Part shown: piece by piece, positions 6,213 through 20,793 of the stretch
Layout: every line of letters begins with the position of its first letter
Position numbering within the stretch: the stretch's first letter is position 1
Assembly: GCA_963771395.1 (NCBI GenBank)
Contig: CAVYTY010000029.1
Location: 13,206-77,205 of the forward strand
DNA length: 64,000 nt
From: an uncultured Acidobacteriota bacterium
Lineage (GTDB): Bacteria; Acidobacteriota; Vicinamibacteria; Vicinamibacterales; 2-12-FULL-66-21
Direction of reading: 5' to 3'
Position numbers and translations under genes: made by a program
The notes under the pieces: model-generated
What the model saw: the letters and a program-made list of their open reading frames with translations, nothing else
Databases searched by the model: none
What the model was told of the DNA's origin: nothing

Positions 6213-6264
6213 CTTGTTATCGTATGCCACGCCGTCGGACATCTCTATGCCAAAAGGCATAGCG

Positions 6265-7071
6265 TCAAAAGACACGCGACAGAAACCTCGCGAGCGCACT
6301 CGAAAAACCCTCCGGCGCCTCGAGGTTCGAGAGGTGCCCCACGCGCGGCAGCACGACCAGCTCCGCCCTGGGAATGGAGCAGGCGAGGAGCTCGGCGTCG
6401 GCGGCGGGGGTCACCGTATCCTCCTGCCCCACGATGACGAGCGCGGGACAGCTGATGCGCCGGAGGTCCGGCGTCGAGTCCGGACGGTTGATGAGCGCGT
6501 GCAACGCGGCGTCAATCGCATCCGGCTGGTTCGCCTCCATGATGCGACGAGCCTCGGCGAGGACCTGCGGACGTTCGCGGTGCGTGGTCTCGCCGACGAG
6601 CTTCGGGAGCAGCGTGTCCACAACCGCGCTCACGCCTCTTCCCCGGAGCAACTCTGACGTCGCGCGCCGGCCGGCCTGGCCTTCCGGCGTATCCGCCTGG
6701 GCCTTCGTATCGGCCAGGACCACGCCCGCGAATCGGCCCGGCGCCTGCCGGAAAAGGGCGAACGTGACATAGCCGCCCATCGACAGGCCTCCTATCACCG
6801 CCGTCTCGATTCCCAATGCGTCCATGAGTGCGACCACGTCGCCGGCGTACGCGTCCATGGTCAACAACGCGTCCACCTCGGGCGTCCCGGCGCCGAATCC
6901 GCGGAGATCAGGCGCGATGAATCGCCAGCCGTCAGGCACGTGGTCGATTTGGGCCTGCCACATGTCGGCGTTGAAAGGGAATGCGTGGAGGAGGAGGAGC
7001 GGCCGCCCCCTCCCGGCTTCGAGGTACCGCGTTGCCCGGCCGTTCAATGTCGCCTGCCGTTCGAGAACCAT
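6265..7071 (-). CDS. alpha/beta hydrolase (3-oxoadipate enol-lactonase-like)
   Basis: Intact 268-aa ORF. LLLLHAFPFNADMW, nucleophile elbow GLSMGG, C-terminal VGHLSNLE. Confidence 0.85.
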   Translation of the reverse strand: MVLERQATLNGRATRYLEAGRGRPLLLLHAFPFNADMWQAQIDHVPDGWRFIAPDLRGFGAGTPEVDALLTMDAYAGDVVALMDALGIETAVIGGLSMGGYVTFALFRQAPGRFAGVVLADTKAQADTPEGQAGRRATSELLRGRGVSAVVDTLLPKLVGETTHRERPQVLAEARRIMEANQPDAIDAALHALINRPDSTPDLRRISCPALVIVGQEDTVTPAADAELLACSIPRAELVVLPRVGHLSNLEAPEGFSSALARFLSRVF

Positions 7072-7181
7072 GATCGAATGATAGTGTCAAACGTCGTGAC
7101 GAGTGGACAGGGATCAATTTGACGGGGCTCGGAACCACACCCCGCGCTGCGAAGATAATATCGATCATCCTGGAGAATCCA

Positions 7182-7934
7182 ATGCAGATGCGCACGCGTC
7201 CCCGCTCGATCGCCGCAATGTTTCTCGCGCTCGCGCTCGCGCCCTCGTCTGCGGCTGCGCAGACGGCGGATGACATCATCACCCGTCACATCGCGGCGCG
7301 GGGCGGCCGGGACAAGCTCACGTCAATCCAGACGGTGAAGATGACGCGAACGGTGGCGAGCGGGATCGGGACGACGCTCAAAGTCATCGTCTACAAGAAG
7401 CGGCCCAACCTCATGCGAGTCGAGCAGGGACCGGCGGCACCTGGTGCGACAATGACGCCTCGAGGCATCAATGCGGACGCGGTCTGGGACATGGTGCAGG
7501 GCAAGGCGGTGCCTCGTCAGCCGCAGCTGGCCGCCGAGTCGCGAGAAGTCGACGGTGACTTCGATGGGCTGCTCGTCGACTGGCGGGAGAAGGGCCATGC
7601 CGTCGCGCTCGCGGGGCGGGAGACATTGCCCGGCGGCGACACCTACAAGCTCACGGTGACGCTCAAGAGCGGCCTGGTACGAACCATCTACCTCGACGCC
7701 CGCACATACCTCGACCGTCGTCACACGGGAGTGCTCAACCTGCCGAACGGCCGCAGGTTCGATATCACGATCGACTTCGACAACTGGCGCGACGTCGATG
7801 GCGTGAAGTTCCCATTCGACGTCATGGAAGAGCGAACGGGCAAGGAACCGGTCGTCACGCTCGTCACATACACCGAGAAGATCGAGGTCAACGTGCCGAT
7901 GGAGGACGCGCTCTTCGCCGCGCCCGTGAAGTGA
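7182..7934 (+). CDS. secreted hypothetical protein (possibly LolA-like fold)
   Basis: ORF 7119..7934 trimmed to ATG 7182 behind GGAGAA (7172-7177). Signal peptide MQMRTRPRSIAAMFLALALAPSSAAAQ. Beta-rich sequence with no catalytic motif recognised. Confidence 0.6.
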   Translation: MQMRTRPRSIAAMFLALALAPSSAAAQTADDIITRHIAARGGRDKLTSIQTVKMTRTVASGIGTTLKVIVYKKRPNLMRVEQGPAAPGATMTPRGINADAVWDMVQGKAVPRQPQLAAESREVDGDFDGLLVDWREKGHAVALAGRETLPGGDTYKLTVTLKSGLVRTIYLDARTYLDRRHTGVLNLPNGRRFDITIDFDNWRDVDGVKFPFDVMEERTGKEPVVTLVTYTEKIEVNVPMEDALFAAPVK

Positions 7935-7948
7935 CCGCGACCGCCTCT

Positions 7949-9352
7949 CTACCCCGCGCAGACGCGGTCGAACGCCTGGAGGATCGATGCCGCGGATCGG
8001 TCGATATCGTCCTCGTTCGTTCGCCAGTTCGAGACCGAGATCCGCATCGCGGGAGCGCCTCCCCACATCGTCCCGCCACACCAGCACACGCCCGAGGCCT
8101 GGACTGCCGCCATGACGTGGTGCGTGATGTTCTCGTCGGTCCGCCCCGACAGTGACGAGAACCGGACGAGGACCTGATTGAGGACCACCTCGTTGAGAAC
8201 CAGCACTCCCGGTTGATTCGAGAGCCTGTCGGCCATGCGCACCGCCAGCCGGCAGCAGCGATCCACGAGATCGGCGAGACCCGATCGGCCGAGCGTCCGC
8301 AGCACGGCGTAGATCGGTACGACACGGGCGCGGCGTGAGGCCTCGGGTACCCAGTCGGTTCCGTCACGCTGCTCACCTTGACCGGGCGTGAGGTAGGCGG
8401 CCGTCTGACTCATCGCCGCGCGGTGGGCCGCGGGATGACGCACGATCACGATGCCGCTGTCGTACGGGACGTTGAGCCACTTGTGCCCGTCGGTCGTCCA
8501 CGAATCGGCATCCGCGAGCCCGGAGACGAGCCGGCGATAGCTGGGTGAGGCGGCAGCCCACAAGCCGAAGGCTCCATCGACGTGCAGCCATGCTCCGTGC
8601 GCGCGGGTGAGCTCTGCGATCTCGAGCAGGGGATCACACGCGCCGGTGTTCACGTTCCCGACCTGCGCACAGACAATCGTCGGACCTGGCGTCGCCGACA
8701 GAGCCCACTCGAGCGCATCGGGCCGCATGCGACCCTGTTCGTCGGTGGCCACCCCCATGATCGTCCGGCTGCCGACGCCGATCATCCGGCACGCGGCGTG
8801 GATCGAGGCGTGAGCCTCCTGGCTGGCGACGACTGTCAGCGCCGGCGCTCCCTGCAGGCCGAGGGACTCGACGTCCCACCTCGCGCGGCGCAACACTTCG
8901 TGCCGCGCCGCTGCCAGCGCGGTCACGTTGGCCGTGTGCGCGCCGGTCACGAACCCGACGCTCGCCTGCTCGGGCAGGCCGAGCAGGTCCAGAATCCAGC
9001 GCGCCGTGCAGGCCTCGAGCGCCGACATCGCGGGGGACATGATGTGCAGGGCGACGTTCTGGTCCCACGTCGACACGAGCCAGTCGGCGGCCACGGCGAT
9101 GGGATAACTCCCTCCGGTCACGAAGCCGAAATAGCGCGGCCCGGCGGTGGCGACGATACCGGGCTCGAGGCGAGCGGTCAGGTCAAGAAGGACGCTGAGC
9201 TCGTCCTGAGGGCCCGACGGAAGCGGACCTCCGAGAGCGGCCACCAGCTCGTCGAACGACGCTCTTGGGGCCACGGGTCGATCGGGCAATGAGTTGAGAA
9301 AGGCCATGGCCTGCTCATGGGCGCGCGCCAGCAGGTCATAGGGTTGAGCCAT
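7949..9352 (-). CDS. PLP-dependent decarboxylase (group II, aromatic-amino-acid decarboxylase-like)
   Basis: ORF 7949..9439 trimmed to ATG 9352 (MAQPYDLLARAHE). GPRYFGFVTGG; PLP-lysine block DGHKWLNVPYDSG. Confidence 0.85.
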   Translation of the reverse strand: MAQPYDLLARAHEQAMAFLNSLPDRPVAPRASFDELVAALGGPLPSGPQDELSVLLDLTARLEPGIVATAGPRYFGFVTGGSYPIAVAADWLVSTWDQNVALHIMSPAMSALEACTARWILDLLGLPEQASVGFVTGAHTANVTALAAARHEVLRRARWDVESLGLQGAPALTVVASQEAHASIHAACRMIGVGSRTIMGVATDEQGRMRPDALEWALSATPGPTIVCAQVGNVNTGACDPLLEIAELTRAHGAWLHVDGAFGLWAAASPSYRRLVSGLADADSWTTDGHKWLNVPYDSGIVIVRHPAAHRAAMSQTAAYLTPGQGEQRDGTDWVPEASRRARVVPIYAVLRTLGRSGLADLVDRCCRLAVRMADRLSNQPGVLVLNEVVLNQVLVRFSSLSGRTDENITHHVMAAVQASGVCWCGGTMWGGAPAMRISVSNWRTNEDDIDRSAASILQAFDRVCAG

Positions 9353-9432
9353 CAGACAAGTAGTATGCGACCGAATTCGTCTGTTGTTGGGCTTGATCAC
9401 AGGGCGACTGTCATCCGACTGTGTTTGTAGTC

Positions 9433-9461
9433 TTGACAAATTTATTTGTCGGATCTATCCT
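9433..9461 (+). promoter_or_regulatory. sigma70-like promoter with overlapping palindromic operator, upstream of the ArsR-family gene
   Basis: TTGACA (9433-9438), 17-nt spacer, TATCCT (9456-9461). The ATG at 9469 is only 7 nt downstream, implying a leaderless or near-leaderless mRNA. A 7-2-7 palindrome GACAAATttATTTGTC (9435-9450) overlaps the -35 box and spacer. AT-rich island in GC-rich DNA. Confidence 0.45.
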
Positions 9462-9468
9462 CTCCGCG

Positions 9469-10098
9469 ATGTTGCCAAGAGCCTCCGGCGTGCAGGTCAT
9501 TCAACCAGAGACGGCCGCCACAGCCCTTCGGGGCACGCGGCGCACCTTGCTCGCCGCGCTGGCCGAGCCCGACTCTGCCGCCGGGCTCGCCCGAAGGCTG
9601 GGGCTCCCCCGCCAACGGCTCAACTACCATCTGAAAGCGCTCGAGCACTGCGGGTTGCTCGAGTGCGTCGAGGAGCGCCGGAAAGGAAACTGCACCGAAC
9701 GAATTCTCCGCGCCACAGCCCACTCGTTCGTGATCAGCCCCGACGCGCTCGGCGCCCTCGGTCACACCCCGGAAGCAGCGCACGATCGCTTCAGCGCTTC
9801 CTACGTGGTCGCAGTCGCGGCCCGGACGATCACCGAAGTCTCTTCGCTCGACGCACGGGCACGAGCCGAGCACAAGCGACTCTCCACGCTTGCCATCGAC
9901 GCGGAGATCCGCTTCGCGTCTCCCGAGTCCCGCGCGGCCTTTGCCTCGGAGCTGGCCGATCGCGTGGCCGAGCTCGTCGCGAAGTATCACGACGACGTGT
10001 CGCCTCGCGGCCGCCGCTGTCGCGTCGTGGCGCTGGCACATCCGCTGGCGGACGTCCCGCCGCCGGATGCCGCGGCCCTTTCCCCCTCAACCCCCTGA
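9469..10098 (+). CDS. ArsR/SmtB-family winged-helix transcriptional regulator
   Basis: ORF 9421..10098 trimmed to ATG 9469. RRTLLAALAEPDSAAGLARRLGLPRQRLNYHLKALEHCGLL is a wHTH. Followed by an SRPBCC/AHSA1 gene, a common pairing. Confidence 0.8.
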   Translation: MLPRASGVQVIQPETAATALRGTRRTLLAALAEPDSAAGLARRLGLPRQRLNYHLKALEHCGLLECVEERRKGNCTERILRATAHSFVISPDALGALGHTPEAAHDRFSASYVVAVAARTITEVSSLDARARAEHKRLSTLAIDAEIRFASPESRAAFASELADRVAELVAKYHDDVSPRGRRCRVVALAHPLADVPPPDAAALSPSTP

Positions 10099-10126
10099 CG
10101 CTACGCCTCGAGAACAGGAGTAACAC

Positions 10127-10975
10127 ATGGCATCCACGTCCGATAAACCCGTCGCCGCGACGGAGCGCGCGAGCCGGACTTTCTCGATGTCTCTCGACAT
10201 CAACGCGACGCCGGAGGACATCTGGCGCGCGCTCACCGACGCGGGTGAGCTGGTGCGGTGGTTCCCGCTGCAGGCGCGGGTGACGCCTGGGAAGGGAGGC
10301 TCCGTCTTCTGGGGATGGGACGGCCACTTCGCGTGGGAGTCACAAATCGACGCATGGGAGCCTGGCAGGCGCCTGAGGCTCATCGAGAACCGGCCCGCCT
10401 TCGACGTGAACGGCGAACCGCTGCCGGGTCCCTCGCAGCAGATGGCCATGGAGTTCACGCTCGAGACGCACGCGGGGCGGACGACCCTGCGCTTCGTGCA
10501 CTCCGGCTTCAGTGAGGGATCGACCTGGGACGACGAGCTGGAATCGGTGAGCGCGGGCTGGCAGTTCGAATTGCGTGGACTGCGCCACTACCTCGAGCAC
10601 CACAAGGGCCGCGACCGGCAGCACGCATCGGTGCACCACGTAACCTCGCTCACCGCCGCCGAGGTATGGACGCGGCTCCTCAGCCCGGCAGCCTTCGTCG
10701 TCACCGAAGGTCACCTGGCGCAGGGTGAACGGATCGTGATCCACGCGGCGACCGGCGACGTGATCGCGGGCACCGTCGCGTGGCACAACCCCGGCCGCGA
10801 TCTGTTCGTCAGGGTCGATGATCTGGAAGACGGTGTGTTCCGCCTGAGCACCTGGCATGCGGGCGGACAGACTGGACTTCAGGTGTGGATGACAACCTAC
10901 GACGCGAGACACGCCGAGCGTGTGCGCGAGTTCGGCGCTCGGGCGCAGCAGCTGGTCGACCAGGTGTTCCGGTGA
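10127..10975 (+). CDS. SRPBCC superfamily protein (Aha1/AHSA1-like), two tandem domains
   Basis: ATG 10127 behind AGGAG. ...INATPEDIWRALTDAGELVRWFP... is typical of the AHSA1 family. 282 aa. Confidence 0.8.
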   Translation: MASTSDKPVAATERASRTFSMSLDINATPEDIWRALTDAGELVRWFPLQARVTPGKGGSVFWGWDGHFAWESQIDAWEPGRRLRLIENRPAFDVNGEPLPGPSQQMAMEFTLETHAGRTTLRFVHSGFSEGSTWDDELESVSAGWQFELRGLRHYLEHHKGRDRQHASVHHVTSLTAAEVWTRLLSPAAFVVTEGHLAQGERIVIHAATGDVIAGTVAWHNPGRDLFVRVDDLEDGVFRLSTWHAGGQTGLQVWMTTYDARHAERVREFGARAQQLVDQVFR

Positions 10976-11028
10976 TCGAGCAGGGGCTCGCGGGTTCGGG
11001 CTCATCTGGCCATGCACTCAATCGCGTT

Positions 11029-11415
11029 TCATCCGCGTGCCGCTCCTCGCTCTTCCCGCGACACCGCAGCATTTTCTTCGTGAGCGTTCGGAATCTCGTC
11101 GATGGATCGAAACACGGAGAGCCCGCGCGCCCGAAACGTCTCGACCTCGTCATCGGCCCCCTGCGACGCGCCTTCGATCCTCAAGACCGCATCGCAGCGC
11201 TCCGTCAGGCTGATGGACAGCGCCGCCATGATCTGTCCGTACGATTCCTGACCGGCGGTCTCAATGACTGGCAGAGCCAGATTCACGCCAATGATCGGGA
11301 CATGGCCCTTCTCGAGAATGGCAAGGGCGGATCGATTGAGTGTCCGCAGGTTCTGCGCCCAGACCTCCGGATCGGACGAACCGGAGCGATACGGGCCCGC
11401 CACCATGATCCACAT
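11029..11415 (-). CDS. hypothetical protein, paralogue of 52887..53258 (possibly nucleoside 2-deoxyribosyltransferase-like Rossmann fold)
   Basis: ORF 11029..11448 trimmed to MWIMVAGPYRSGSSDPEV. Shares with 52887..53258 the blocks AGPYRSG, GH(V/I)PI(I/V)G, LALP, RCDAVLR and GAD. Function not recognised with certainty. Confidence 0.6.
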   Translation of the reverse strand: MWIMVAGPYRSGSSDPEVWAQNLRTLNRSALAILEKGHVPIIGVNLALPVIETAGQESYGQIMAALSISLTERCDAVLRIEGASQGADDEVETFRARGLSVFRSIDEIPNAHEENAAVSREERGAARG

Positions 11416-11513
11416 GCGCTCGCAGCCCCTCGTGGTCACATTGCACACCGCGGCTAGACCGCGCCCGCAACGACGGCCACGTCAATCGCCAATCACAGGC
11501 ATGTGCTCGTGCA

Positions 11514-11877
11514 TCACCCGGCTCGTGTGCCCGCCGGAACCGCTCGCTCGGGCACTGCCAGCACGGGCACCAGCCCGTCGGCGTGTCCGATATCGAATAG
11601 CATGGCCTCCGAGATTCCGACCAGCCATCCGGCGCGGCGGGAGGTTGACCACGAACAACGCCTGACGACCCACCACTTCCGATGGATCCGCCCGTTCCCG
11701 CTTCATGCCGACAAGCACCTGCCGGCTGTGGTCGCCGAAACTGACCCGAAGCTCGACCAGCTTCTCCGAGCCGGACACGTCCGTCAATGCTTCGATGGTA
11801 CCCACCCGAACGTCGATTCGGTTCAGCTCGTCGATCGACACCGGCGGCTTGATTGGGACGGGGACAGGCGGTGACAT
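11514..11877 (-). CDS. tRNA-binding OB-fold protein (CsaA/Trbp111-like); frame broken once
   Basis: ORF 11482..11952 from ATG 11877 gives MSPPVPVPIKPPVSIDELNRIDVRVGTIE...FVVNLPPRRMAG, then junk. Skipping one base at about 11617-11622 gives GISEAMLFDIGHADGLVPVLAVPERAVPAGTRAG-stop (TGA 11516-11514). Confidence 0.75.
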
Positions 11878-11882
11878 GTCGA

Positions 11883-12872
11883 CTACCTCGCGGCGTACTT
11901 GTCGGCGCCAAGGAAGTGGAGCGACACGTACGGCTCGCCGCCGACGACCCAACTGTCGTGCGGTTCCGGCGGAATGTAAAACAAGTCCCCCGCGCGGAGC
12001 TCGATAACCCGACCGTTGTCGAACGCCGCCGTGGCCACACCTGAAACGACCAGCCCCACGTGCTCAACGGTGCAACGCGACGCTCCAACCTCTGGACCCA
12101 CGTGCGCCGACCACTTCCAACCCGGTTGGTACGTCGCCCTGCCGATCGTCTGTCCGGCAAGGCGAACCACCTCAAAACGGCCGAGCGGCATCTCCCGGAC
12201 CTCGTCTGGAGTTTCGAACCGCCTGAGGATCACGCCGACGTCCATTCCGCCCTCCTGACGAAAGTGCCTGCGCATGGGCACGAACTGAATGTCAACGCCG
12301 CCAGGCAAGGCGTGTTGGACCGGCTCTCGAGAGATGTAGCCGCAGCTGCTGTATAGACGTTTGCCTGGCAGCGTGGCCATCAGTTCGGCCGACGCGAAAC
12401 CGCGCGCTCGGGCCTCCGCCTCGCACAGCTCGAGCGTTGTCCGGCCAAGGCCTCTGCGCGCCCAGTCCGGATGGACGAAGAACGCTCGAATCCGCGCGGC
12501 ATCGCGAGCGGGATCCAGCGGCTCGGGCTGACGATCGGCCAGGCCATCGCTTCCGAAAAGCGTCTTCCGCCAACTCCACCCGCCGCAGGCGACGAGCGTC
12601 CCGTCCGTCTCGGCCACGAAGTAGGTTCCGTCCCGGACCAATTGGGTGTCGACGCCCAGAGCGGATCCGAGCGCTGCCTCGATCTGTTCCTCGGAGTAGT
12701 CGTCTCGGCTCAGTCCACGTGTGGCGAGCGCGATGAGCCGCTCGATCTCAGGAATGTCGTCTGGAGACGCACGGCGGAACCGAGCGACGACCGCTCGTCC
12801 TTCGGGGTCTCGAATCGGAATCTGAGCAAGCACGTGGAGTCCTCGTCCGGGGGCAGGCGATGGTCGGGCCAC
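11883..12872 (-). CDS. GNAT N-acetyltransferase fused to a C-terminal cupin domain
   Basis: Single 329-aa ORF. N-terminal half has ...FVAETDGTLVACGGW...RIRAFFVHPDWARRGLGRTTLELCEAEARARGF (GNAT motif A). C-terminal half from MDVGVILRRFETPDE...GDLFYIPPEPHDSWVVGGEPYVSLHF is cupin-like. No stop between the halves. The start could also be the internal GTG at 12833. Confidence 0.75.
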   Translation of the reverse strand: MARPSPAPGRGLHVLAQIPIRDPEGRAVVARFRRASPDDIPEIERLIALATRGLSRDDYSEEQIEAALGSALGVDTQLVRDGTYFVAETDGTLVACGGWSWRKTLFGSDGLADRQPEPLDPARDAARIRAFFVHPDWARRGLGRTTLELCEAEARARGFASAELMATLPGKRLYSSCGYISREPVQHALPGGVDIQFVPMRRHFRQEGGMDVGVILRRFETPDEVREMPLGRFEVVRLAGQTIGRATYQPGWKWSAHVGPEVGASRCTVEHVGLVVSGVATAAFDNGRVIELRAGDLFYIPPEPHDSWVVGGEPYVSLHFLGADKYAAR

Positions 12873-12913
12873 TCATGGCGTTCTCGCTAACCGCCGCCTC
12901 CGAACAATTCAGG

Positions 12914-13040
12914 CTGTCACGGACTCACGGTCAACTCACGATGGCACGATGACGCGATGAACACGATGAAACCTTTAAGTCTTGTCATCGTGCTCATCGT
13001 GCCATTGTGCCATCGTGCCGGAGCCGTCGGCCCGTGACAG
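12914..13040. repeat. tandem-motif hairpin element (CACGATG unit)
   Basis: Arms of about 60 nt, 12914-12972 and 12981-13040, are imperfect reverse complements. Each arm is a degenerate array of CACGATG(N2-3). Confidence 0.85.
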
Positions 13041-13047
13041 TAATCAC

Positions 13048-13563
13048 CTACGACGCGACCTCGTCGAACTCTTCTCTGTACTTGGCTACACCGGACACGC
13101 CCGCCATGGCCGGCGCATCCAGAACCAGCGCCATGAACGCCGCCTCCGGCATTCCCTCCCATTGGCTCGCGAGGCGGTGCGTCGAAGCGGGCTCGAACCC
13201 GAAGCGCGGGTAGTACTCAGGGTGGCCGACGACGACGACGAAAGGACAGCCGCGCTCACGGAGGATGTCGAGACCTCGGCGTACGAGTTGGGAGCCTATC
13301 CCCTGTCGCTGGCGATCGGGGAGCACGGCCATCGGAGCCAATCCCATCCCGAGGACTCGTCGCCCCATGCTCTCGACCACTACCGGCGTGAACAGAATGT
13401 GACCGACAACGTCGTCGTCCACAGCCACCAACGACAGCGCGTCAGGGCTGGCCTGCCGCAGTTTGTCGACGAGGTCAGCCTCCGCCGGCTGCGCGAACGC
13501 CAGCTCGTTGACGTGTCGAACCTGGGCGGCGTCCTCTATCTTCTCGGGACGGATGGCAATCAT
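13048..13563 (-). CDS. GNAT family N-acetyltransferase
   Basis: ORF 13048..13695 trimmed to ATG 13563 behind GGAGGA. MIAIRPEKIEDAAQVRHVNELAF...LPDRQRQGIGSQLVRRGL...YYPRFGF. Confidence 0.85.
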   Translation of the reverse strand: MIAIRPEKIEDAAQVRHVNELAFAQPAEADLVDKLRQASPDALSLVAVDDDVVGHILFTPVVVESMGRRVLGMGLAPMAVLPDRQRQGIGSQLVRRGLDILRERGCPFVVVVGHPEYYPRFGFEPASTHRLASQWEGMPEAAFMALVLDAPAMAGVSGVAKYREEFDEVAS

Positions 13564-13576
13564 GCTTCCTCCGAAA

Positions 13577-14062
13577 TCACGCCGCACGGCGCCTCGCCGC
13601 CCGGACGCCGAGCGTGAGCCCACCAGCGCCGAGCGCCACCAGCAACAGAACGGTATCCGCCGGATGGTTGGCGATGGCGGCGAGGTCCGCGGCAAGCGTC
13701 GGCCTCATGTGTGGACCCCCCGCAAACAGGAAACGGCCGCCTGCCAGCAACACCAGGGCCTGAAGCGGCGCCACCGCCACTCCCACCTGGCCGAGCAACC
13801 AGGGCCGGCCCGGACCAGTCATGGCCCGTGCGCCCCCAACTGCCGGCAACAGCACTCCGCCGACGACCAGCGCAAACGGCGCGCTCATGATCGGCGCGTA
13901 AATCACGACGAGTTCGACGATCGCAGTGCGATCGTGCATTGCCGCAATCGCCACAGCGCCGCACAGCCCCGTTATCACGGTGACCAGCCAGGCGCCCGCG
14001 GCGGCGGGCAGAAGCGACCGGATGTTCGCCAGAGTTTCACGAAACGTCATCAGGCCCCTCAT
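13577..14062 (-). CDS. hypothetical integral membrane protein
   Basis: ATG 14062 overlaps the upstream stop (ATGA overlap at 14059-14062). About four hydrophobic segments (AWLVTVITGLCGAVAIAA, VVIYAPIMSAPFALVVGGVLL and others). Confidence 0.55.
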   Translation of the reverse strand: MRGLMTFRETLANIRSLLPAAAGAWLVTVITGLCGAVAIAAMHDRTAIVELVVIYAPIMSAPFALVVGGVLLPAVGGARAMTGPGRPWLLGQVGVAVAPLQALVLLAGGRFLFAGGPHMRPTLAADLAAIANHPADTVLLLVALGAGGLTLGVRAARRRAA

Positions 14063-14607
14063 CGGCACGAGCCGGCACCCCACTGCACGAACACCCAGCG
14101 ATCCTGAATGCGGCGATATTGCGCCCGACGCTCGCAGCAGCACATCTTCACAATTGCGGGATCGGCGGGGGCCACGAAGTCCACGCCCAGCGACATCGTC
14201 GCCGTGTCTCCGGACCACTCGAAGCGATCGACCGCGATGAAATAGACCAGCGCCCTGACGCGTTCGGCTTCGGCTGCCGCCTCTGCCTCGGAGAGGAGAC
14301 GAAACTCATAGCCCTCGCGCCTGGGAAGGGCGCCTTCCCCGAGCGTCAATCGCGATAGGGACAGATCGGAGCGGATCGCCACGCTTTTCGCGCCTCGCAA
14401 AAGGCCGATGTCCGGAATGTCCCCCGCAACCAGACGCTCCTCCAGAACCTGTTTGACCAACGTGTCGATCTCTGCACCGGCCGGCCGCGCCTGAGCGTGC
14501 GGCAAGACCAGCGAACCGTCGCACAACGCGAGCGTGCTGTCGGTGGCAGCGCTGAAGACCAGCCCCACGATGAGCGCACGCACACCCAGTTTCGTCATCT
14601 GTTCCAT
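14059..14607 (-). CDS. hypothetical secreted protein
   Basis: ORF 14059..14667 trimmed to MEQMTKLGVRALIVGLVFSAA (signal-like). No motif recognised. Cys-rich C-terminus (KMCCCERR). Confidence 0.5.
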   Translation of the reverse strand: MEQMTKLGVRALIVGLVFSAATDSTLALCDGSLVLPHAQARPAGAEIDTLVKQVLEERLVAGDIPDIGLLRGAKSVAIRSDLSLSRLTLGEGALPRREGYEFRLLSEAEAAAEAERVRALVYFIAVDRFEWSGDTATMSLGVDFVAPADPAIVKMCCCERRAQYRRIQDRWVFVQWGAGSCR

Positions 14608-14790
14608 GTTCTGAATAGCGCAGCGTTCAGCCGCGGCGGCTTCATCATCGCACGCCGTCGGCTGCAAACGGCCGATGCGCCCTCTATATCAGAAGCGCGG
14701 GCGAAGTGACCTTCATCGCCCCGATAGCCAATCTCGCACTGCCAGCAACCAGGACTCGGATGAAGCCGTCCCATGCAATCCAGAACGCGG

Positions 14791-15931
14791 TCAACCGACC
14801 CGCAGGCCCCGATCGAGCGCGAAGCATACCAACAGGATGCCGCACACCCCGAGCGTCACGACAATCCAAAAGATGACCGGCGACCAGATCCGGATGAAGT
14901 GTCGTCCCTCGGCAGCGTCCGCGCGGCTCTCGTACGATCGCATCGCCCCGGACGCCGCGTCGCCTAGACGCTGCCCGGCGTCGGCGCGCTGGCTCGCGGG
15001 CCATCTGTGGCCAGTTCGCGAGATGTACGACGGCGTATCGAGGACGGGTGCGTAGGTACTTCTCGAGGATGAGGTTCTCGGACCACGCGGCTCGAATGTC
15101 TCCCGCTTCCCACCGGTGATTCCGCTCCTGGACGTGCAGCAGTCCTTCGCTCATGTACTGGTCTTCGCGGCTCCGGCTGCGCGGTCTCTCGATCGGCGGC
15201 CGATCCTTCCAGAGCGTGAGCCGGTCCTGGCTGATGTTGAGGAGCGTCGCAGCATCGTAGCGCGACCGGAACCTCCCGGCCTCGGGATCGCTCGTCTCCA
15301 CGCCGAGGTGCACGGAGCGGACGAAGAGTGCAAAGAGGAGCGACACGGCGGCTGCCACGACGCCAATCCGTCGAAGCGATCCCGGGCGGAGCATCAACGG
15401 TCGAGCGCCGGGCGGATCGACGCCGACACTGAAGAGCAGCCCGCAGACGATTGCGGCCATGTTGAGGAAGACGTCCCGCATGTCGCCGACACGGCCGGGA
15501 ATGAACCACTGCAGCCACTCTTCGACCGTGCCGACGGCGATGCCCGCCAGCATCGGCAGCACGAACATCGAGGCGTCACCGCGCGGGCGCCAGACGCGGT
15601 AGAAGAGCAGCGCAATGACGCCGTACTCGACAAAGTGGACGCGTTCGACGGCGTCGACTTCGGCGATGCCCTGCGCGTTCCAGAGCGCGTAGACGGTCCC
15701 GAAGGCCAGGGCGAAGACGATGGCGCCGTACCTCAGCGTACGCCGATCCCGGATCCTCAGGAGGGCAACGACGATGGCCCCGCCAATCGCCAGGGCGACG
15801 GCGGTTCCGACGACCGTGGCGTACTGACCCGGGAACGTGGCCCGGATCCAGTCGCGGATGTCGCGGATGAAGGGCGTCGAGAGAATCACTGCGATCGACA
15901 GCGCCACGGCCACCGACAAGCGCACGAACAC
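14791..15931 (-). CDS. VanZ-like family membrane protein with extended C-terminal region; frame broken once
   Basis: GTG 15931. VERVHFVEYGVIALLFYR is VanZ-like. After ...SENLILEKY the listed ORF turns into Arg-rich junk. Removing one base at 15055-15059 (GTACC) gives YAPVLDTPSYISRTGHRWPASQ...WSPVIFWIVVTLGVCGILLVCFALDRGLRVG-stop (TGA 14793-14791). Confidence 0.7.
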
Positions 15932-15934
15932 TCC

Positions 15935-16094
15935 ACGGTTGTACCACAGCTGAGCTCGGGGACATCCAAGGTTGGGTGTCCCCGGGACCTACGGCTGAGC
16001 TCAGGGACATTCAACCTTGGGTGTCCCGGACCTACGGCTGGGCTCGGGGACATTCAACCTTGAGTGTCCCCGACCTCGGCTGTGGTACAACCGT
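15935..16094. repeat. composite structured element: 16-bp inverted repeat enclosing three tandem hairpin units of about 43-45 nt
   Basis: ACGGTTGTACCACAGC (15935-15950) is the reverse complement of GCTGTGGTACAACCGT (16079-16094). Between them are units 15951-15995, 15996-16038 and 16039-16080, each TGAGCTC-GGGGACA-loop-TGTCCCC-GGACCTACGGC. Confidence 0.85.
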
Positions 16095-16097
16095 CGC

Positions 16098-17726
16098 GTG
16101 AGCGTTTCCAGAGTCGTCACCGCCACCCTGGTCGCGACGGCCTCGGCCTCCGTCGCAGCCGGACTGGACCATTCCGCCCAGCAGCGGCCAGCCGGCCCGC
16201 GGATCGAGATCACGATCGCCGGGGATGCCCGCGCCGAGGCGACGACCGGGATGGTCTACGTCGCCATCAGTCGCGACAACAAGCGAACGCCGATCGAGCA
16301 GGCCGAGCCCACGGGCGCTCCTCTTTTTTCGATCCCCGTCGAGAGCCTGCAGGCCGGCACGCCGGTCGCCATCACCGCGGCCGAGCGCGGGCATCCGATC
16401 GCGAGCCTGAAGGACATCCCGGCCGGCGAATACTGGATGCAACCATTCGTCAATGTCTACACACGATTCGCGCGCGCCGACGGCAAGACCGTGTGGCTGC
16501 ACATGGATCAGTGGGAGGGCCAGAACTGGAAGCGGTCGCCGGGGAACATCTTTGGCGATCCGGTACGCATCCAGTTCGATCCCCGAACCACTTCACCGAT
16601 CCGCCTCGTCGCCGACAAGGTGATTCCGCCGATTCAGCCGCCGGCCGACACCGAGCTCGTCAAGCGCATCAAGATAGAGAGCCGAATCCTGACGAAGTGG
16701 TGGGGCCATCCGATCTATCTCGGCGCAACGGTCCTGCTGCCGAAGGACTACGACACCCGTCCCGATGTCCGCTATCCGGTGAACTACGAGCAGGGCCATT
16801 TCTCGCTGCGCGCGCCCGGCGGCTTCGGCACCGGCGGCGCCTTCGATACGTTCTGGCTCGCCTCGTCCACGCCGCGGATGATCTATGTGACGCTTCAGCA
16901 TCCATCGCCCTACTATGACGACTCGTATGGTGTGAACTCGGAGAACAACGGGCCGTTCGGCGACGCGATCCTCCAGGAGCTCATCCCCGCCATCGAGGAA
17001 GAATTCCGCGTCATCCGCGAGCCGTGGGCGCGCACGCTCTCCGGCGGATCGACCGGCGGATGGATCGCCGCCGCGCACCAGATCTTCTACCCGGATTTCT
17101 ACGGCCGCGCATTCGCCAGCTGCCCGGACTCGCTCGACTTCAGGTATCACCAGATCGTCGACATCTACAAGGACGCGAACGCGTACTTCGTCGACAAGGG
17201 CTGGATGCGCGTCGACCGCCCCAACCAGCAGCGGCCGGATGGCAACATCGAATCGATGATGAAGGACGAGAACCACTTCGAGCTCGTCGTCGGGGACAAG
17301 TCACGCTCGGGCGGCCAGTGGGACATCTGGGAGGCGACGTACTCACCCGTCGGTGCCGACGGCTACCCGAGACGCCTGTGGGACAAGAGCACCGGGCAGA
17401 TCGACAGGTCCGTCGCCGAGTCGTGGCGCAAGTACGACCTGCGCCACGTGCTCGAAACCAACTGGAGCACGCTCGGGCCGAAGGTCGCGCACAAGCTGAA
17501 CGTGTACGTCGGGGACATGGACTCGTACTATCTGAACAACGGCGTCGAGAAGCTGAACGAGTTTCTCGGCAAGGCCGACAACCCGAAGTTCACCGGCGAG
17601 ATCGTCTTCGAGCGTCGCGCCCCGCACTGCTGGGGCCCGCGCGGGGCGGACCTGATGACGAAGATGGTCCGGCACATCGAGAAATACGCGGCGCCGGGGG
17701 CGGATCTGAAGAGCTGGAGATACTGA
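16098..17726 (+). CDS. secreted esterase-family alpha/beta hydrolase (putative esterase/enterochelin-esterase-like)
   Basis: ORF 16017..17726 trimmed to GTG 16098 (VSVSRVVTATLVATASASVAAG signal). LSGGSTGGW is a GxSxG elbow. The upstream ORF codons are translated repeat DNA. Confidence 0.8.
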   Translation: MSVSRVVTATLVATASASVAAGLDHSAQQRPAGPRIEITIAGDARAEATTGMVYVAISRDNKRTPIEQAEPTGAPLFSIPVESLQAGTPVAITAAERGHPIASLKDIPAGEYWMQPFVNVYTRFARADGKTVWLHMDQWEGQNWKRSPGNIFGDPVRIQFDPRTTSPIRLVADKVIPPIQPPADTELVKRIKIESRILTKWWGHPIYLGATVLLPKDYDTRPDVRYPVNYEQGHFSLRAPGGFGTGGAFDTFWLASSTPRMIYVTLQHPSPYYDDSYGVNSENNGPFGDAILQELIPAIEEEFRVIREPWARTLSGGSTGGWIAAAHQIFYPDFYGRAFASCPDSLDFRYHQIVDIYKDANAYFVDKGWMRVDRPNQQRPDGNIESMMKDENHFELVVGDKSRSGGQWDIWEATYSPVGADGYPRRLWDKSTGQIDRSVAESWRKYDLRHVLETNWSTLGPKVAHKLNVYVGDMDSYYLNNGVEKLNEFLGKADNPKFTGEIVFERRAPHCWGPRGADLMTKMVRHIEKYAAPGADLKSWRY

Positions 17727-17727
17727 C

Positions 17728-17819
17728 GCGGCTCAAGGCTCCGGGCTTTGGGCTCTAGCAAACCCCTCGACCATGTAGTCGAAGATCTTGCGAGCGCCTG
17801 AAGCCCGGAGCCAAGAGCC
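17728..17819. repeat. tandem-motif hairpin element, GGCTC-unit family with conserved core, between convergent genes
   Basis: Left arm GGCTCAAGGCTCCGGGCTTTGGGCTCTAGCAA. Right arm TTGCGAGCGCCTGAAGCCCGGAGCCAAGAGCC is its imperfect reverse complement. Core at 17755-17791. Confidence 0.85.
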
Positions 17820-20467
17820 TACTCCCTCAACGACATAGCCGGATCGACGCGCGCGGCTCTGAGCGCGGGGACATAGCTCGCCAACGCGCCGGCGAGCGCG
17901 AGGATGGCGGCGACCGACAGCAGGACCGCCGGATCGGCCCGCGGCGTCTCGAACAGGAACGCGGATACCACGCGGCTCATGGCGACTGCGCCAATCAGCC
18001 CCACGACCAGTCCAGCCAGCACCACGCGAAGCCCGTCCCACACGACCATCCTCAGCACGAGCGAGCGGCTCGCGCCGAGCGCCAGTCGAAGCCCGATCTC
18101 CCTCGTCCGGGATGAGACCGCGAACGCGACGACGCCGTAGAGCCCGATCGCGGCGAGCAGCAGCGCGGCGCCGGCAAAGCCGGTCAGCACCGTCGTGGCG
18201 AACCGCTCGACGGCGAGCGACCGGTCGATCACCTGCGCCAGCGTCCGGATGTCGTAGATCGCGATCGTGCCGTCGAGCGCCGCGACCTCGCGGCGGATAG
18301 CCGGCAGCATCGAGTACGGGTCGCCGCTCCCACGCACGACGATCGACATCGTATGAGCGGGGCGCTGCGTGTGCGGTTCGTAGACCTCGGGCCTGACCTC
18401 GACCGCGAGCCCATCCTGCTTCTCGTCGGCGACGACGCCGACGATCGTTCTCCATCGCGTCGTCGGCGAGGGACGGCCGTACGTGAGTCGCTGGCCGATC
18501 GCGCTCCGATTCTTGAAGTACAACTGCGCGAGCGTTTGGTTGATGATCGCCACCGGCTGTGCCGTCGCTCTGTCACCCGTCGTGAAATCGCGTCCCGCCA
18601 TCAGCCGGATACCGGCCGCGTCGAGAAACCCTGGCGTGATGCCCTTGTGTCGCAGCTCTCTTCCCCAGACATCAGGTTGACCGTCGATGAAGAGATCGCC
18701 GGTCCATGTGTACCCCTCGAGCGCCAGGCGCACGGTTGCACCCGCCGCGCCCACGCCCGGGATGCTCCGCAGCCTGCTGACGGCCTCGGAGAAAAACACA
18801 GCCGCCTTCTGATCGTCGTCGTATCGCAGCGCCGGCAACGAGAGCTTGAAGGAAAGACCGCCGCTGGGATCGATGCCCGGGTCGACGCCGCGCAGCTGGA
18901 GAAAGCTTCGCACCAGCAGACCCGAGGCGACGAGGAGCACAACCGAGAGCGCGACCTCGATGACGATCAGCCCACGCCTCACCATCACCCCGCCGCCTGT
19001 GGCGCTGCGGCCGCCCTCCTGCAACGTGTCCGCCGGCGTCGAGCGAACGCTCTGCCACGCCGGCGCCAATCCGAACACGAGCGACGTCCCGAGCGCGGCG
19101 AGGACGATGAAGCCGAGCACCCATCCGTCGATGGCTGCCTGCTCGAGGCGCGGCACACCGGCCGGCGCCGATTCCCGCAGCCAGTCGACCGCGACACGGG
19201 CGACGATCGCGCCGGCTGCCGCACCCGCGGCCGCGAGGACCAGGCTCTCCGTGAAGAGCTGACGCAGCAGCCGCAACCGACCGGCGCCGAGGGCGACGCG
19301 AATCGCGAGTTCGCGCCTGCGGGTCGTCGCGCGCGCCAGAAGGAGGCTCGCGACGTTCGTGCACGCGATGAGCAGCACCAGGCCGACCGCTCCCATGAGC
19401 ATCAGGAGCGCCTGCCGGTTGTCGCCGACGAACCACTCGTGCAGCGGCCCGAGGCCAACGCCCATCTGCGTATTGGTGTCCGGGTACTCGCGTTCGAGCT
19501 CACCGGCGATGCGCGTCATGTCCGCACGGGCCTGACCGAGCGTGACACCCGGCGCGAGACGCGCGACCGCCCGGAACCAGTGCGGGCGGCGCATGCTGCG
19601 GAAGAGCGGCTCGTTCAAAACCTGCGGCGTCCAGTAGTCGGCCGCGGCCCCTGGGAAGGTGAAGGTCCGCGGCATGATGCCGACGATCTGAACGGACGCG
19701 CCGTCGAGGTCGATCGCCCGCCCTACCGCCGCCGGATCGGCTGCGAAGCGGCGGCGCCAGAAACCGTCGCTGAGCACGATGACGCGTGCATGGCCGCGCT
19801 GTTCATCGGCCGGAGTAAACGTGCGGCCGTGGGCGGCGTCGGTGCCGAGCACGGAAAAAAAGTCGGCCGAGACGTCCATGCCGCGAACCCGATCCGGCTC
19901 TCCGATGCCAGTCAGCGTCGCGTCGTTGAGGCCGGGCCCCTTGCCGTCAGCGCCGGTGTAGTAGGCAATCGCCTCGAACGATCGGTTGCGGGCTCTCCAG
20001 TCGAGCAGGTTCGCCGGCGCCACCGTCGCGTGCGTCCAGTTCCGCGGCGGATTGGTCTCCCAGATCTGCACGAGGCGATCCGGTTCGCGATACGGCAGCG
20101 GTTGGAGAAGCACGGCGTGAACGACGCTGAAGACCGCCGCGTTGGCGCCGATCCCGAGCGCGAGCGTCAGGATCGAGATCGAAGTGAACGCCGGGCGTTG
20201 CCGTAGACCGCGAAGCGCGTAGCGGACATCTTGAAGAATCACGGACAAGCTCCATTCTTCCTTGCGCAACCACGCGGCGTGCAGGACGGCGCCGCACGAC
20301 CGCAGGACCAGACGCAGGCGCGACCCGAGCGAGAGCGTCGCCCCGTTCGCGAGCCGTTCGCGCTCGTGCCACAGCTCGGCCTCCCACTCGCGCGTCCAGT
20401 CGTCGCGGAAGGCGCACGGCACGATGGCCGTTCCGAGCGCGATGAGAAGGCGAGAGAGCCCCAGCAT
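17819..20467 (-). CDS. ADOP-type duplicated ABC permease (MacB-like, two FtsX domains)
   Basis: The real start is ATG 20467 (MLGLSRLLIALG...), overlapping the PadR stop by 1 nt (TGATG). The listed 1222-aa ORF is an upstream run-on. 882 aa with a DVRYALRGLRQRPAFTSISILTLALGIGANAAVFS-type N-terminal TM and two permease halves. PadR + ADOP is the classic acidobacterial pair (TIGR03433/TIGR03434). Confidence 0.9.
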   Translation of the reverse strand: MLGLSRLLIALGTAIVPCAFRDDWTREWEAELWHERERLANGATLSLGSRLRLVLRSCGAVLHAAWLRKEEWSLSVILQDVRYALRGLRQRPAFTSISILTLALGIGANAAVFSVVHAVLLQPLPYREPDRLVQIWETNPPRNWTHATVAPANLLDWRARNRSFEAIAYYTGADGKGPGLNDATLTGIGEPDRVRGMDVSADFFSVLGTDAAHGRTFTPADEQRGHARVIVLSDGFWRRRFAADPAAVGRAIDLDGASVQIVGIMPRTFTFPGAAADYWTPQVLNEPLFRSMRRPHWFRAVARLAPGVTLGQARADMTRIAGELEREYPDTNTQMGVGLGPLHEWFVGDNRQALLMLMGAVGLVLLIACTNVASLLLARATTRRRELAIRVALGAGRLRLLRQLFTESLVLAAAGAAAGAIVARVAVDWLRESAPAGVPRLEQAAIDGWVLGFIVLAALGTSLVFGLAPAWQSVRSTPADTLQEGGRSATGGGVMVRRGLIVIEVALSVVLLVASGLLVRSFLQLRGVDPGIDPSGGLSFKLSLPALRYDDDQKAAVFFSEAVSRLRSIPGVGAAGATVRLALEGYTWTGDLFIDGQPDVWGRELRHKGITPGFLDAAGIRLMAGRDFTTGDRATAQPVAIINQTLAQLYFKNRSAIGQRLTYGRPSPTTRWRTIVGVVADEKQDGLAVEVRPEVYEPHTQRPAHTMSIVVRGSGDPYSMLPAIRREVAALDGTIAIYDIRTLAQVIDRSLAVERFATTVLTGFAGAALLLAAIGLYGVVAFAVSSRTREIGLRLALGASRSLVLRMVVWDGLRVVLAGLVVGLIGAVAMSRVVSAFLFETPRADPAVLLSVAAILALAGALASYVPALRAARVDPAMSLRE

Positions 20468-20793
20468 CAGGCCTTTGCGCGCGCCGCGCGGTTCGCGAGC
20501 GTGGGCCGGACGGGCCTCAGCGCGTGGAAGCGGTCGAGCGCCTCGACCAGTGCGCGCTCGCCCTGCGCGGTGATGCGGTAGTAGCGGCGCGGCGGCCGGC
20601 GGTCGCCGTGCGCCTTCACCAGGTCCTCCCACTGAGACTTGACGTATCCGTCGCGTTCGAGACGTGACAACGCCGGATACACCGTGCCGCTCGGGAGCTC
20701 CGAGCGATCCATGATGTCGAAGCCGTAGCGCACGCCGTCGGCGATCGCATGCAGCACCGACACCGCCGCGTAACTCAGTCGTCTTCCGGACAC
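20467..20793 (-). CDS. PadR-family transcriptional regulator
   Basis: GTG 20793 behind GGAGG. VLHAIADGVRYGFDIMDRSELPSGTVYPALSRLERDGYV...RRYYRITAQG. Confidence 0.9.
   Translation of the reverse strand: MSGRRLSYAAVSVLHAIADGVRYGFDIMDRSELPSGTVYPALSRLERDGYVKSQWEDLVKAHGDRRPPRRYYRITAQGERALVEALDRFHALRPVRPTLANRAARAKA

Follow-up and report, generated by a model that had tools for sequence, protein, structure and literature searches.

A 64,000-nt stretch of contig CAVYTY010000029.1 from an uncultured Vicinamibacterales bacterium (Acidobacteriota), hereafter the window, carries at 12914-13040 a long intergenic hairpin whose arms are tandem arrays of the heptamer CACGATG. Hairpins of this design, 60-250 nt in length with arms of about 4 (3-14) tandem units of 7-9 nt, are shown below to be statistically real. 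Throughout this group of soil Acidobacteria they sit just after genes and probably mark transcript ends. A preliminary description of the window, made from its letters alone, is confirmed, and the phenomenon is more general than first noted. We further propose that the element at 12914-13040 is one copy of a set of extragenic palindromes, similar to repetitive extragenic palindromes (REP) and REPINs, that act as 3'-end hairpins and are remodelled by slippage and template switching; this proposal holds about half of our confidence.

The hairpin at 12914-13040

The interval is an imperfect palindrome of two 56-nt arms (12914-12969 and 12985-13040) that are 77% complementary and lie 15 nt apart. 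Tandem Repeats Finder (TRF) recovered a period-8 array in each arm, with 4.0 copies of CACGATGA on the left (12937-12969) and 4.1 copies of CATCGTGC on the right (12986-13019). A conserved stem, not made of units, takes up the outer third of both arms (12914-12936 and 13020-13040). RNA folding gave -75.6 kcal/mol for the plus strand and -83.1 for the minus strand, compared with -38.7 +/- 3.6 for dinucleotide shuffles (z = -10.2 and -12.2, respectively), and DNA folding gave -41 compared with -19.3 +/- 2.7 (z = -8.1), a value equalled by none of 200 shuffles. The palindrome with CACGATG-array arms described previously is borne out by the palindrome, TRF and folding analyses, with the correction that units are separated by 1-3 nt and not by 2-3 nt. 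The hairpin starts 7 nt past the TAG stop of a GNAT acetyltransferase gene and forms the 3' flank of that gene. The features of the locus are as follows.

11883-12872, minus strand: next co-directional gene, GNAT + cupin, starting about 40 nt past the hairpin
12906-13047: full copy of the CACGATG family (covariance model 112.6 bits, E 9e-27)
12914-12936 and 13020-13040: outer stem
12937-12969: array, CACGATG x4
about 12970-12984: loop
12985-13019: array, CATCGTG x4
13048-13695, minus strand: GNAT acetyltransferase gene (Acetyltransf_9 / Acetyltransf_1), TAG stop at 13048-13050

Abundance in the window and its relatives

The comparison set comprised the window and 80 relative loci of about 21 kb each (labelled L001 and so on), 1.37 Mb in total. 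Many of the relative loci are collinear with window positions 1-30000, and L001 is the nearest relative. The closest matches of a window protein were in metagenome-assembled genomes (MAGs) of Vicinamibacterales and other Acidobacteriota, at no more than 87% amino-acid identity; taxon labels of MAGs are those of their depositors.

TRF identified 374 arrays with 6-12-nt units in this set, 156 of them of period 7, compared with 66-79 arrays (11-15 of period 7) in two shuffles of the same DNA. Intergenic DNA, about 17% of the total, holds 217 arrays, with a sharp peak at period 7 (116 arrays) followed by periods 8 (44) and 9 (26). Inverted pairs, defined as arrays with mutually reverse-complementary units no more than 150 nt apart, numbered 35, or 33 if the units must be of equal length, and the shuffles contained none. 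The search of relatives for palindromes with periodic arms that the preliminary description proposed finds them well beyond the original contig. Among 125 arrays without a strict partner, 45 have a degenerate inverted one, so that over half of the intergenic arrays are palindromic. Clean examples include L007 5536-5665, where ATGGGCG x9 faces its complement x9, and paired arrays in L070 (GAAGGCA) and L027 (AAGACNN). Per 100 kb there are 16 arrays in loci of Vicinamibacterales type, compared with 7-9 where the label is Gemmatimonadota or other, and several units were found at multiple sites inside single genomes. An assembly artefact was rejected, as the architecture is present in independent MAG and metagenome assemblies from many projects. 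As a side observation, L010 11600-11730 carries two adjoining direct arrays after the esterase stop, the self-complementary ACGTGCK x8 followed by CCCGAGY x6.

Detection relied on TRF combined with matching of units to their reverse complements. Against a background of 65% GC, the elements did not stand out when local RNAfold (Lfold) structures were ranked on energy, on energy density or on a stem score, and a gapless antidiagonal palindrome scan returned 8 sites only. Detectors based on k-mers gave 83 matches compared with 10 in shuffled DNA, with GC-rich coding false positives; over-strict filters left 18 and lost known window loci. Single-linkage clustering of units chained everything together and yielded no usable groups.

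Position relative to genes and promoters

The preliminary description placed the elements between genes, mostly past stop codons, with three exceptions between divergent starts. The same was observed here: 8 of 11 window loci adjoin a stop codon, and those at 15924, 32221 and 34825 lie between divergent starts, a placement that stands after mending of the frameshifted DUF5996 and sigma-like (start 32160) gene models. Twenty-nine inverted pairs could be classified by their flanking genes as co-directional (17), convergent (9) or divergent (3), where these classes make up 58%, 13% and 29% of background spacer length. Convergent gaps are over-represented, with 31% of pairs compared with 13% of spacer length, and of the 17 co-directional hairpins, 14 are no more than 30 nt away from the stop of the gene upstream.

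The junction downstream of the DUF4139 gene illustrates this arrangement. Every orthologue ends in TAC TGA and is followed by the hairpin, a conserved TTGAC-N17-TAGATA, AGGAGG and the ATG of the next gene, an order that puts the element exactly where a transcript end is expected. The promoter-like TTGAC-N17-TAGATA, at about 28061-28125 of the window (minus strand), stands directly downstream of the hairpin and is kept in L001, L003, L004 and L009. Another promoter-like sequence, CTGACT-17-TATAAT, follows the 22905 hairpin (22909-22881, minus strand).

More generally, 3' flanks are more structured than 5' flanks. Across about 260 gene ends, z fell below -3 in 18.8% of 3' flanks compared with 5.8% of 5' flanks (Mann-Whitney p = 6e-7). 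Canonical intrinsic terminators were rejected as an explanation. A pattern scan of window positions 5000-24999 for a hairpin plus T-run returned 10 sites, the chance level (10.0 +/- 3.6 expected), and the hairpins have no T-rich tail: the 12 nt that follow contain 2.69 T compared with 2.38 expected, and only 3 of 70 tails contain at least 6 T. The lack of a U-tract reported earlier is upheld by these counts.

The CACGATG and GGCTC families

Metagenomes were queried with three consecutive perfect CACGATG units, which returned 120 loci. The full palindrome was present in 13 soil metagenome contigs of 60-71% GC, with the same 4+4 units. Alignment of 15 copies gave the consensus ACGgGCcGACGGC, N5, (CACGATGnn) x4, loop, (nnCATCGTG) x4, N5, GCCGTCGGCcCGT; written with variable spacing it reads ACGGGCCGACGGC, N5, (CACGATG N1-3) x4, a 12-25-nt loop, (N1-3 CATCGTG) x4, N5, GCCGTCGGCCCGT. 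The family is about 140 nt long, with a conserved outer stem GGCCGACGGC/GCCGTCGGCC and about 4 units per arm. Conservation of the unit core is partly imposed by the search pattern; that of the outer stem is genuine because this stem lies outside the query. RNAalifold found the unit pairs to be almost invariant, with little covariation. Outside hairpins the units are not enriched (CACGATG, 25 compared with 22 expected; AATGCTG, 2 compared with 2.8). Where genes were called on both sides, contexts of the family were co-directional in seven cases, convergent in two and divergent in none.

A covariance model built from the 15-copy alignment and searched against the 1.37 Mb matched only the two window copies and one copy in L001, all at 110-113 bits. 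The L001 copy occupies a non-orthologous junction at which the window has no element. Weaker matches to the model are sister families: L007, which has three copies in its 21 kb, and L026 carry CACGACG/CGCGACG units with flanks of the same GCCGACGG..GCCGTCrGC form, and L015 carries CACGAAG units. Judged by these alignments, the CACGATG hairpin is a dispersed sequence family. Within L001 the copy sits at 20455-20835 in an insert of about 330 nt relative to the window, flanked by an imperfect direct duplication of about 50 nt (TTGGATTTTCAyTyCGCGG...CGTCATGrCCAyTC), and the same junction in L003 holds a different hairpin (AGCGGAG units).

GGCTC-type copies at 5290, 17728 and 20905 share 69% identity with one another and with copies in L001 and L003, in an alignment that takes in a core outside the arrays, CTAGCAAGACCTTCGAG..CTCGAAGATCTTGCTAGAGCC. 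The right half of the composite at 20851 (about 20905-20984) is a paralogue of 17728-17819. The GCGAGCC unit of 28133 is the reverse complement of GGCTCGC, and so a GGCTCNN variant as judged by its unit. The GGCTC element at 17728-17819 and its orthologues carry different unit variants, CAG in L001, TTA/CTC in L003 and CCG/TTG in the window, and the two arms of each remain complementary at the variable positions. A rigid pattern for the GGCTC core caught one copy only, as copies differ by indels. Two paralogous GGCTC hairpins bracket a 3.1-kb segment (17819-20851) with a PadR regulator and a MacB/FtsX permease. This segment is absent in L001, L003 and L004, where a single hairpin (about 11631-11725 in L001) matches both window copies; the difference is a 3.1-kb indel between repeat copies.

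At least two of the window's unit types are shown by these comparisons, at the level of sequence, to be multi-copy families at non-orthologous sites within and between genomes. The loci of the preliminary description are not separate inventions, each with a unit to itself. Its two CACGATG loci belong to one conserved family of about 140 nt, and its loci at 5270, 17728 and 20851 are paralogues that share a core.

Other loci in the window

The remaining loci are listed below; z, where given, compares folding with RNA or DNA parameters with that of dinucleotide shuffles.

5269-5353: GGCTC-type element of six direct GGCTYNN units (5269-5310) and the family core hairpin (5304-5353), 3' of the DUF547 gene stop (5358); mostly a one-armed array and weak as a hairpin (RNA z -1.8, DNA z -1.9)
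15924-16105: nested palindrome with outer stem GGTTGTACCACAGC / GCTGTGGTACAACC (RNA z -14.8); the loop of this older palindrome holds three tandem 43-nt units, each a GGGGACA..TGTCCCC hairpin, and the element ends 7 nt before the esterase start codon
17728-17819: GGCTC-type hairpin of GGCTYNN units and core CTAGCAA..TCGAC / GTCGAAGATCTTGC, strong and periodic (RNA z -8.1, DNA z -7.2), exactly filling the space from the stop of the esterase-like gene (17726) to that of the convergent MacB/FtsX permease gene (17819)
20851-20984: GGCTC-type composite, situated 3' of gene 20989-21855 (minus strand), past its stop; weak hairpin (RNA z -2.7, DNA z -2.4)
22905-22970: hairpin overlapping the final 8 codons of a PALP/CBS gene (stop 22946); strong (RNA z -5.7, DNA z -3.1), periodicity marginal, no array found by TRF
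26856-26919: plain non-periodic hairpin with 30-nt arms, 23 nt past the stop of gene 26942-28060 (minus strand)
28133-28230: GCGAGCC-unit (= GGCTCGC) hairpin, strong and periodic (RNA z -5.1, DNA z -3.3), between the DUF4139 gene stop (28248, minus strand) and the promoter-like TTGAC-N17-TAGATA of the next gene
32193-32336: second CACGATG-family copy, period 9, 4 units per arm, GCCGTCAGCCCGTG flank as in the copy at 12914-13040 (covariance model 110.3 bits); its hairpin at 32221 is strong and periodic (RNA z -6.7, DNA z -5.4); divergent spacer, upstream of the start of the sigma-like gene (32160, minus strand) by about 60 nt and of that of the GT87-like gene (32422, plus strand) by about 115 nt
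34825-34889: weak CAGGAGG-unit hairpin (RNA z -2.6, DNA z -2.3) between the divergent starts of the DUF5996 gene and a tricorn-like protease
52785-52896: AATGCTG-unit hairpin, strong and periodic, 6.3 units per arm, core 92% complementary (RNA z -10.7, DNA z -11.1); the gene to its right is weakly supported, with no match in a Pfam search
63467-63546: GCWGCNN-unit hairpin, strong and periodic (RNA z -5.5, DNA z -5.3), starting 6 nt past the stop (63461) of a 1586-aa TonB-dependent-receptor-like gene

The claim of ten or more loci of this design stands in part, as about 7-8 fit strictly. Folding against shuffles strongly supports 12914 and seven other listed loci and leaves those at 5270, 20851 and 34825 weak, all with z above -3; the locus at 15924-16105 (previously placed at 15935) is nested and is not built of 7-10-nt units. 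CAGGAGG-type units as at 34825 were found again in L008, L015, L019 and L119. The hairpin at 26856-26919 shows that 3' hairpins in this genome are not confined to the tandem-unit kind.

Two genes beside the divergent loci are split between frames, and are either pseudogenes or indel errors. The DUF5996 gene (33454-34800, minus strand) has profile positions 1-40 in ORF (open reading frame) 33454-34800 and 41-295 in ORF 33780-34706. The sigma-factor-like gene (31254-32160, minus strand) has its sigma70_r4 domain in ORF 31254-31937; its N-terminal part, ORF 31657-32160, had no Pfam match, yet is conserved in L004 (69% nucleotide identity to window 32083). The GT87-like glycosyltransferase gene (32422-33843, plus strand) is missing in L004, where about 55 nt separate the DUF5996 stop from the sigma-like start. 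Because of this absence, the 32221 hairpin may predate the gene insertion that turned its spacer divergent.

Further observations in the window concern other features. At 30337-30431 an in-frame TCTGAT x15.7 repeat with 18- and 36-nt super-periods encodes a QNQNQSQSPNQ low-complexity linker of a BNR/sortilin-like protein, flanked by unusually stable local structures at 30224-30335 and 30439-30554. A RES-domain toxin and Xre/MbcA/ParS-type antitoxin pair lies at 55281-56298 (minus strand). A T4 gp19-like tail-tube domain is encoded by a small ORF at about 47447-47890 (minus strand), whose surroundings contain no further genes of a phage or contractile system. The ORF at 49799-50785 (minus strand) has only EF-G domains III, IV and C and no GTPase domain, and is truncated or frameshifted.

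Turnover and in-place change

Orthologous junctions differ in their content. The 5270-5353 junction is an empty spacer of 12-20 nt in nine relatives; elsewhere it carries AGTCGTY x12 (L010), TCCGTGTnn x9 (L014), a mini GGCTC hairpin (L021) or an unrelated array (L019). At the DUF4139 junction, GCTCGCG-type hairpins are found in the window, L001 and L003, a 230-nt CAGTCGR hairpin in L004, a 260-nt GGTGCCnn hairpin in L008, a GGCTCnn hairpin in L021, and nothing in L009 and L067. One junction holds the CACGACG type in L007 and the CTCCCAn type in L026, and the esterase stop is followed by hairpins of differing units in L001, L003, L019, L023, L028, L030 and L070. Read across relatives, these junctions are shown to switch between empty, filled, and filled with another unit type.

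The 15924 locus appears to record change in place. L002 keeps an uninterrupted short palindrome, GGTTGTATCACAGC-TGA-GCTGTGGTAGAAC, and the palindrome loop contains two 43-nt units in L003 and three in L001 and the window, with inner loops inverted between copies (AAGGTT compared with AACCTT). Unit number and loop orientation, as aligned, are shown to vary among orthologues, and the pattern is the footprint that would be expected of tandem duplication plus intrastrand template switching.

Two side observations concern the same locus. The palindrome GGTTGTAyCACAGC-TGA-GCTGTGGTArAAC is conserved 7 nt upstream of the esterase start (about 9965-9995 in L002); in the window, inserted units of about 130 nt in all separate its halves (15936-15949 and 16080-16093). 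The palindrome looks like an operator or a putative TTGTAy-N16-TAsAAC promoter for a leaderless mRNA. The GGGGWSAS motif of the RAYT-like TIRYT terminal repeats (PMC3733652) fits the inner hairpins of the 15924 orthologues in L001 and L003 (GGGGACAC, GGGGACAG), and fits the plus-strand copies of the window, GGGGACAT and AGGGACAT, on the complementary strand only. The sole other GGGGACA..TGTCCCC site (L048) is an ordinary 3' hairpin, and we treat the possible TIRYT likeness as a lead only.

Function and origin

In the reading that we prefer, a 25-55-bp stem-loop at the 3' end of the upstream mRNA would stop RNA polymerase or block 3'-to-5' exonucleases. The second would be the likelier alternative, with the block fixing the transcript end after factor-dependent termination: the absence of a U-tract favours exonuclease protection and end definition over autonomous termination. 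REP stem-loops stabilise upstream mRNA in E. coli. Families would spread by copying without target duplication, through single-strand transposition of the HUH/RAYT type or recombinational copying between 3' ends. Once placed, elements would grow, shrink and homogenise by replication slippage of units and template switching between arms.

Several observations weigh against this reading. The terminator function suggested in the preliminary description agrees with the position of the elements and finds no counterpart in strand-specific pairing: among 20 co-directional hairpins, the sense strand shows no excess of G-U pairs (52, compared with 79 on the antisense strand) and is the more stable strand in just 9. 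Pairing could then be maintained at the DNA level only. With no strand signature, the sequence gives no evidence of selection on the transcript, and we infer the transcript-end role from position, as we infer the mode of spread. Three of the 11 loci in the window, and 3 of all 29 pairs, are placed between divergent starts. The copies of one genome resemble each other at only about 60-70%, so that recent transposition is not visible, and no clean pair of empty and filled sites delimits the ends of an element, the L001 copy lying in a complex 330-nt insert. The 186 arrays comprise 139 distinct units, and this diversity, together with one-armed arrays at otherwise empty junctions, makes an in-place origin possible for many arrays. 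Among about 50 ORFs of the window, none showed a Y1_Tnp domain or that of any other transposase, a result that is uninformative for 64 kb of a several-Mb genome. The relatives all sample one chromosomal neighbourhood, and gene models are our own calls from codon usage and codon score.

One alternative, possible if rather unlikely, holds that the hairpins are intrinsic terminators without U-tracts that evolve in place, where slippage is the cheapest way to lengthen a stem and likeness reflects convergence or local duplication and not dispersal. Such terminators, discussed for high-GC bacteria as I-shaped (PMC8355165), would account for post-stop and convergent positions upstream of the next promoter, for 3' flanks more structured than 5' flanks, and for canonical terminators that are not enriched. 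Unrelated hairpin sequences at the same junction in different lineages and a palindrome at 15924 that grew in place are also in keeping with them. They do not readily explain why non-array flanks and cores are common to copies at non-orthologous sites and in many metagenome contigs, why copies lie between divergent starts (32221, 34825 and 15924), or why there is no G-U strand bias. The spacers of CACGATG elements likewise do not co-vary, as left arms pair equally well with foreign (-40.2 kcal/mol) and own (-39.7 kcal/mol) right arms. Finally, mycobacterial RNA polymerase reportedly needs a U-tract in vitro, and hairpins without one are said (by Czyz et al., in 2014) to terminate poorly.

The constant number of about 4 units per arm, the flanks conserved across many genomes and the recurrence of the same family within genomes argue against the elements being a neutral by-product of mutation, in which heptamer-biased slippage, wherever selection permits it (downstream of stops), is followed by template switching at nascent hairpins with neither function nor mobility. 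Also difficult for such an origin are the enrichment beside stops (14 of 17) and not anywhere in long spacers, and the excess in convergent gaps (31% compared with 13% of spacer length). We consider it improbable, even with the points that it explains directly: the many distinct units, one-armed arrays at junctions empty in relatives, unit-number polymorphism with loop inversions, the lack of a strand-specific RNA signature, and the dominance of period 7. Heptamer repeats are over-represented in many bacteria, for which slippage of the polymerase has been named as a possible cause (Mrazek 2007, cited in PMC4692102).

Arrays of binding sites for a host DNA or RNA protein (a nucleoid protein, gyrase/IHF as at BIMEs, or an RNA-binding protein), with one heptamer per site, are very improbable: the kept 7-nt CACGATG core between spacers that vary in sequence and length without co-variation, the constant 4+4 or so units and the binding of heptamer repeats by CspB-type proteins (as discussed in PMC4679880) agree with it, and against it stand the very many different units even inside one genome, a core conservation that is largely ascertainment by a query demanding three perfect units, and units no more frequent than expected outside hairpins (25 compared with 22 for CACGATG).

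A more far-reaching extension of our reading is speculative and, we think, doubtful. Vicinamibacterales and, more sparsely, Gemmatimonadota might harbour an unrecognised class of self-renewing "palindromic minisatellite" elements. Each family would consist of a heptamer core and an outer stem, and dedicated or hairpin-primed reiterative copying would add units with 1-3 untemplated bases and no classical transposase; together the families would supply the transcript-end signals of genomes without canonical terminators.

Vicinamibacterales are among the most abundant soil bacteria, and to our knowledge almost nothing is known of how their transcripts end. A recent terminator survey had no acidobacterial RNA-seq of usable quality (PMC8355165). 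If the hairpins mark 3' ends, operon boundaries could be approached from sequence in thousands of MAGs. The hairpins also provide a clean natural system for the origin, spread and tolerance of long palindromes and heptamer arrays, and link an old, unexplained excess of bacterial heptamer repeats to REP-like elements. For annotation, the hairpins create spurious ORFs and periodic peptide tails, of which the previously reported TTMATMNTMDTMS and LEPKAESQKPRAQS were reproduced, and such repeats may complicate assembly and binning too.

Comparison with known systems

Several known classes were rejected. Searches of Rfam returned no match at gathering score, consistent with the earlier statement that no named RNA family is involved; in E-value mode only generic miRNA-precursor hairpins appeared, at 24-32 bits compared with cut-offs of 69-100. 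CRISPR was dismissed, again as previously stated, since units are contiguous (0-3 nt between them) and mirrored, with no constant repeats alternating with unique spacers of similar length. DNA uptake sequence pairs in the style of Neisseria or Haemophilus would require units over-represented outside hairpins, which these are not. Integron attC sites were excluded by inspection, as RYYYAAC/GTTRRRY ends are lacking and the flanking genes are syntenic and on both strands. Full-text literature searches turned up no account of such repeats for either Acidobacteria or Gemmatimonadota, and extragenic palindromes with tandem-unit arms have not previously been described in this phylum.

Like MITEs (transposable elements of miniature size with inverted repeats), the elements are small, palindromic overall, dispersed and intergenic. 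They differ in having no target-site duplication, no terminal inverted repeats distinct from the body and no related transposase that we could see. Flanking direct repeats of 4 nt occur at 3 of 35 elements compared with a control mean of 2.4, and longer ones are at chance (5 nt, 1 compared with 0.8; 6 nt, 0 compared with 0.3), so a MITE with target duplication is rejected and the lack of target duplication noted at the outset is upheld. Hairpins without a U-tract are classed as I-shaped terminators in WebGeSTer (as cited in PMC8355165), and these share the GC-rich stem-loop right after the stop without a T-run. They are short and unique and their activity is itself disputed, whereas the palindromes described here are long and family-structured, with periodic arms. 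Cyanobacterial STRR sequences and the TAACTGA repeats of Beggiatoaceae (PMC4679880) are likewise abundant intergenic tandem heptamers of obscure origin, with Calothrix heptamers as a further cyanobacterial case (cited in PMC4692102). In contrast to the present elements, STRR and TAACTGA repeats use one or a few fixed heptamers in direct arrays, which for the most part lie upstream of start codons; the Beggiatoaceae genome has one inverted case among 170 sets (PMC4679880).

The REP, BIME and REPIN elements (PMC2817692, PMC3733652, PMC8266576) are also multi-copy extragenic palindromes, mostly downstream of genes and without target duplication; they form species-specific families, with dimers that fold into hairpins of about 100 nt and roles in mRNA 3' stabilisation. 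Comparable multiplicity after genes is seen here, with two CACGATG and 3-4 GGCTC copies in 64 kb and three sister copies in the 21 kb of L007. REP stems are 5-13 bp with a 2-20-nt loop (PMC3733652), in contrast to 25-55 bp built from 3-14 units in the present elements. REPs also carry an unpaired GTAG or CGTC tag; here GCCGTCGGCC of the CACGATG family contains CGTC, but inside the paired outer stem, and the other unit types have no common tag. The sequence available showed no RAYT gene. The description that suits the elements best is REP/REPIN-like in behaviour and not in anatomy. The preliminary description, which did not recognise them as REP, was correct as to formal membership, which fails, and missed the similar behaviour as dispersed palindromes.

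The closest precedent, by analogy, which the preliminary description did not name, comes from Xanthomonas, where GGGAATC heptamers form inverted arrays (Rehm et al. 2015; PMC4692102). Those genomes have 70-75 inverted or convergent pairs each; most have four units, they cluster within 50 bp of stops, few separate divergent ORFs, and they differ from species to species. In both systems, tandem intergenic heptamers of about 4 units face each other as possible stem-loops in high-GC genomes, near stops and between co-directional ORFs, few between divergent ORFs, and vary among close relatives; the inverted arrays of about 7-nt units described here are close together, near stops and depleted between divergent ORFs. 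Xanthomonas has one G-rich unit per genome, interpreted as forming G-quadruplexes, whereas here dozens of unrelated units occur, mostly without G-tracts (139 units in 186 arrays, with no G3 tract in CACGATG, AATGCTG or GGCTCNN). The present elements also belong to another phylum, and some of their families have conserved outer stems or cores that are not arrays.

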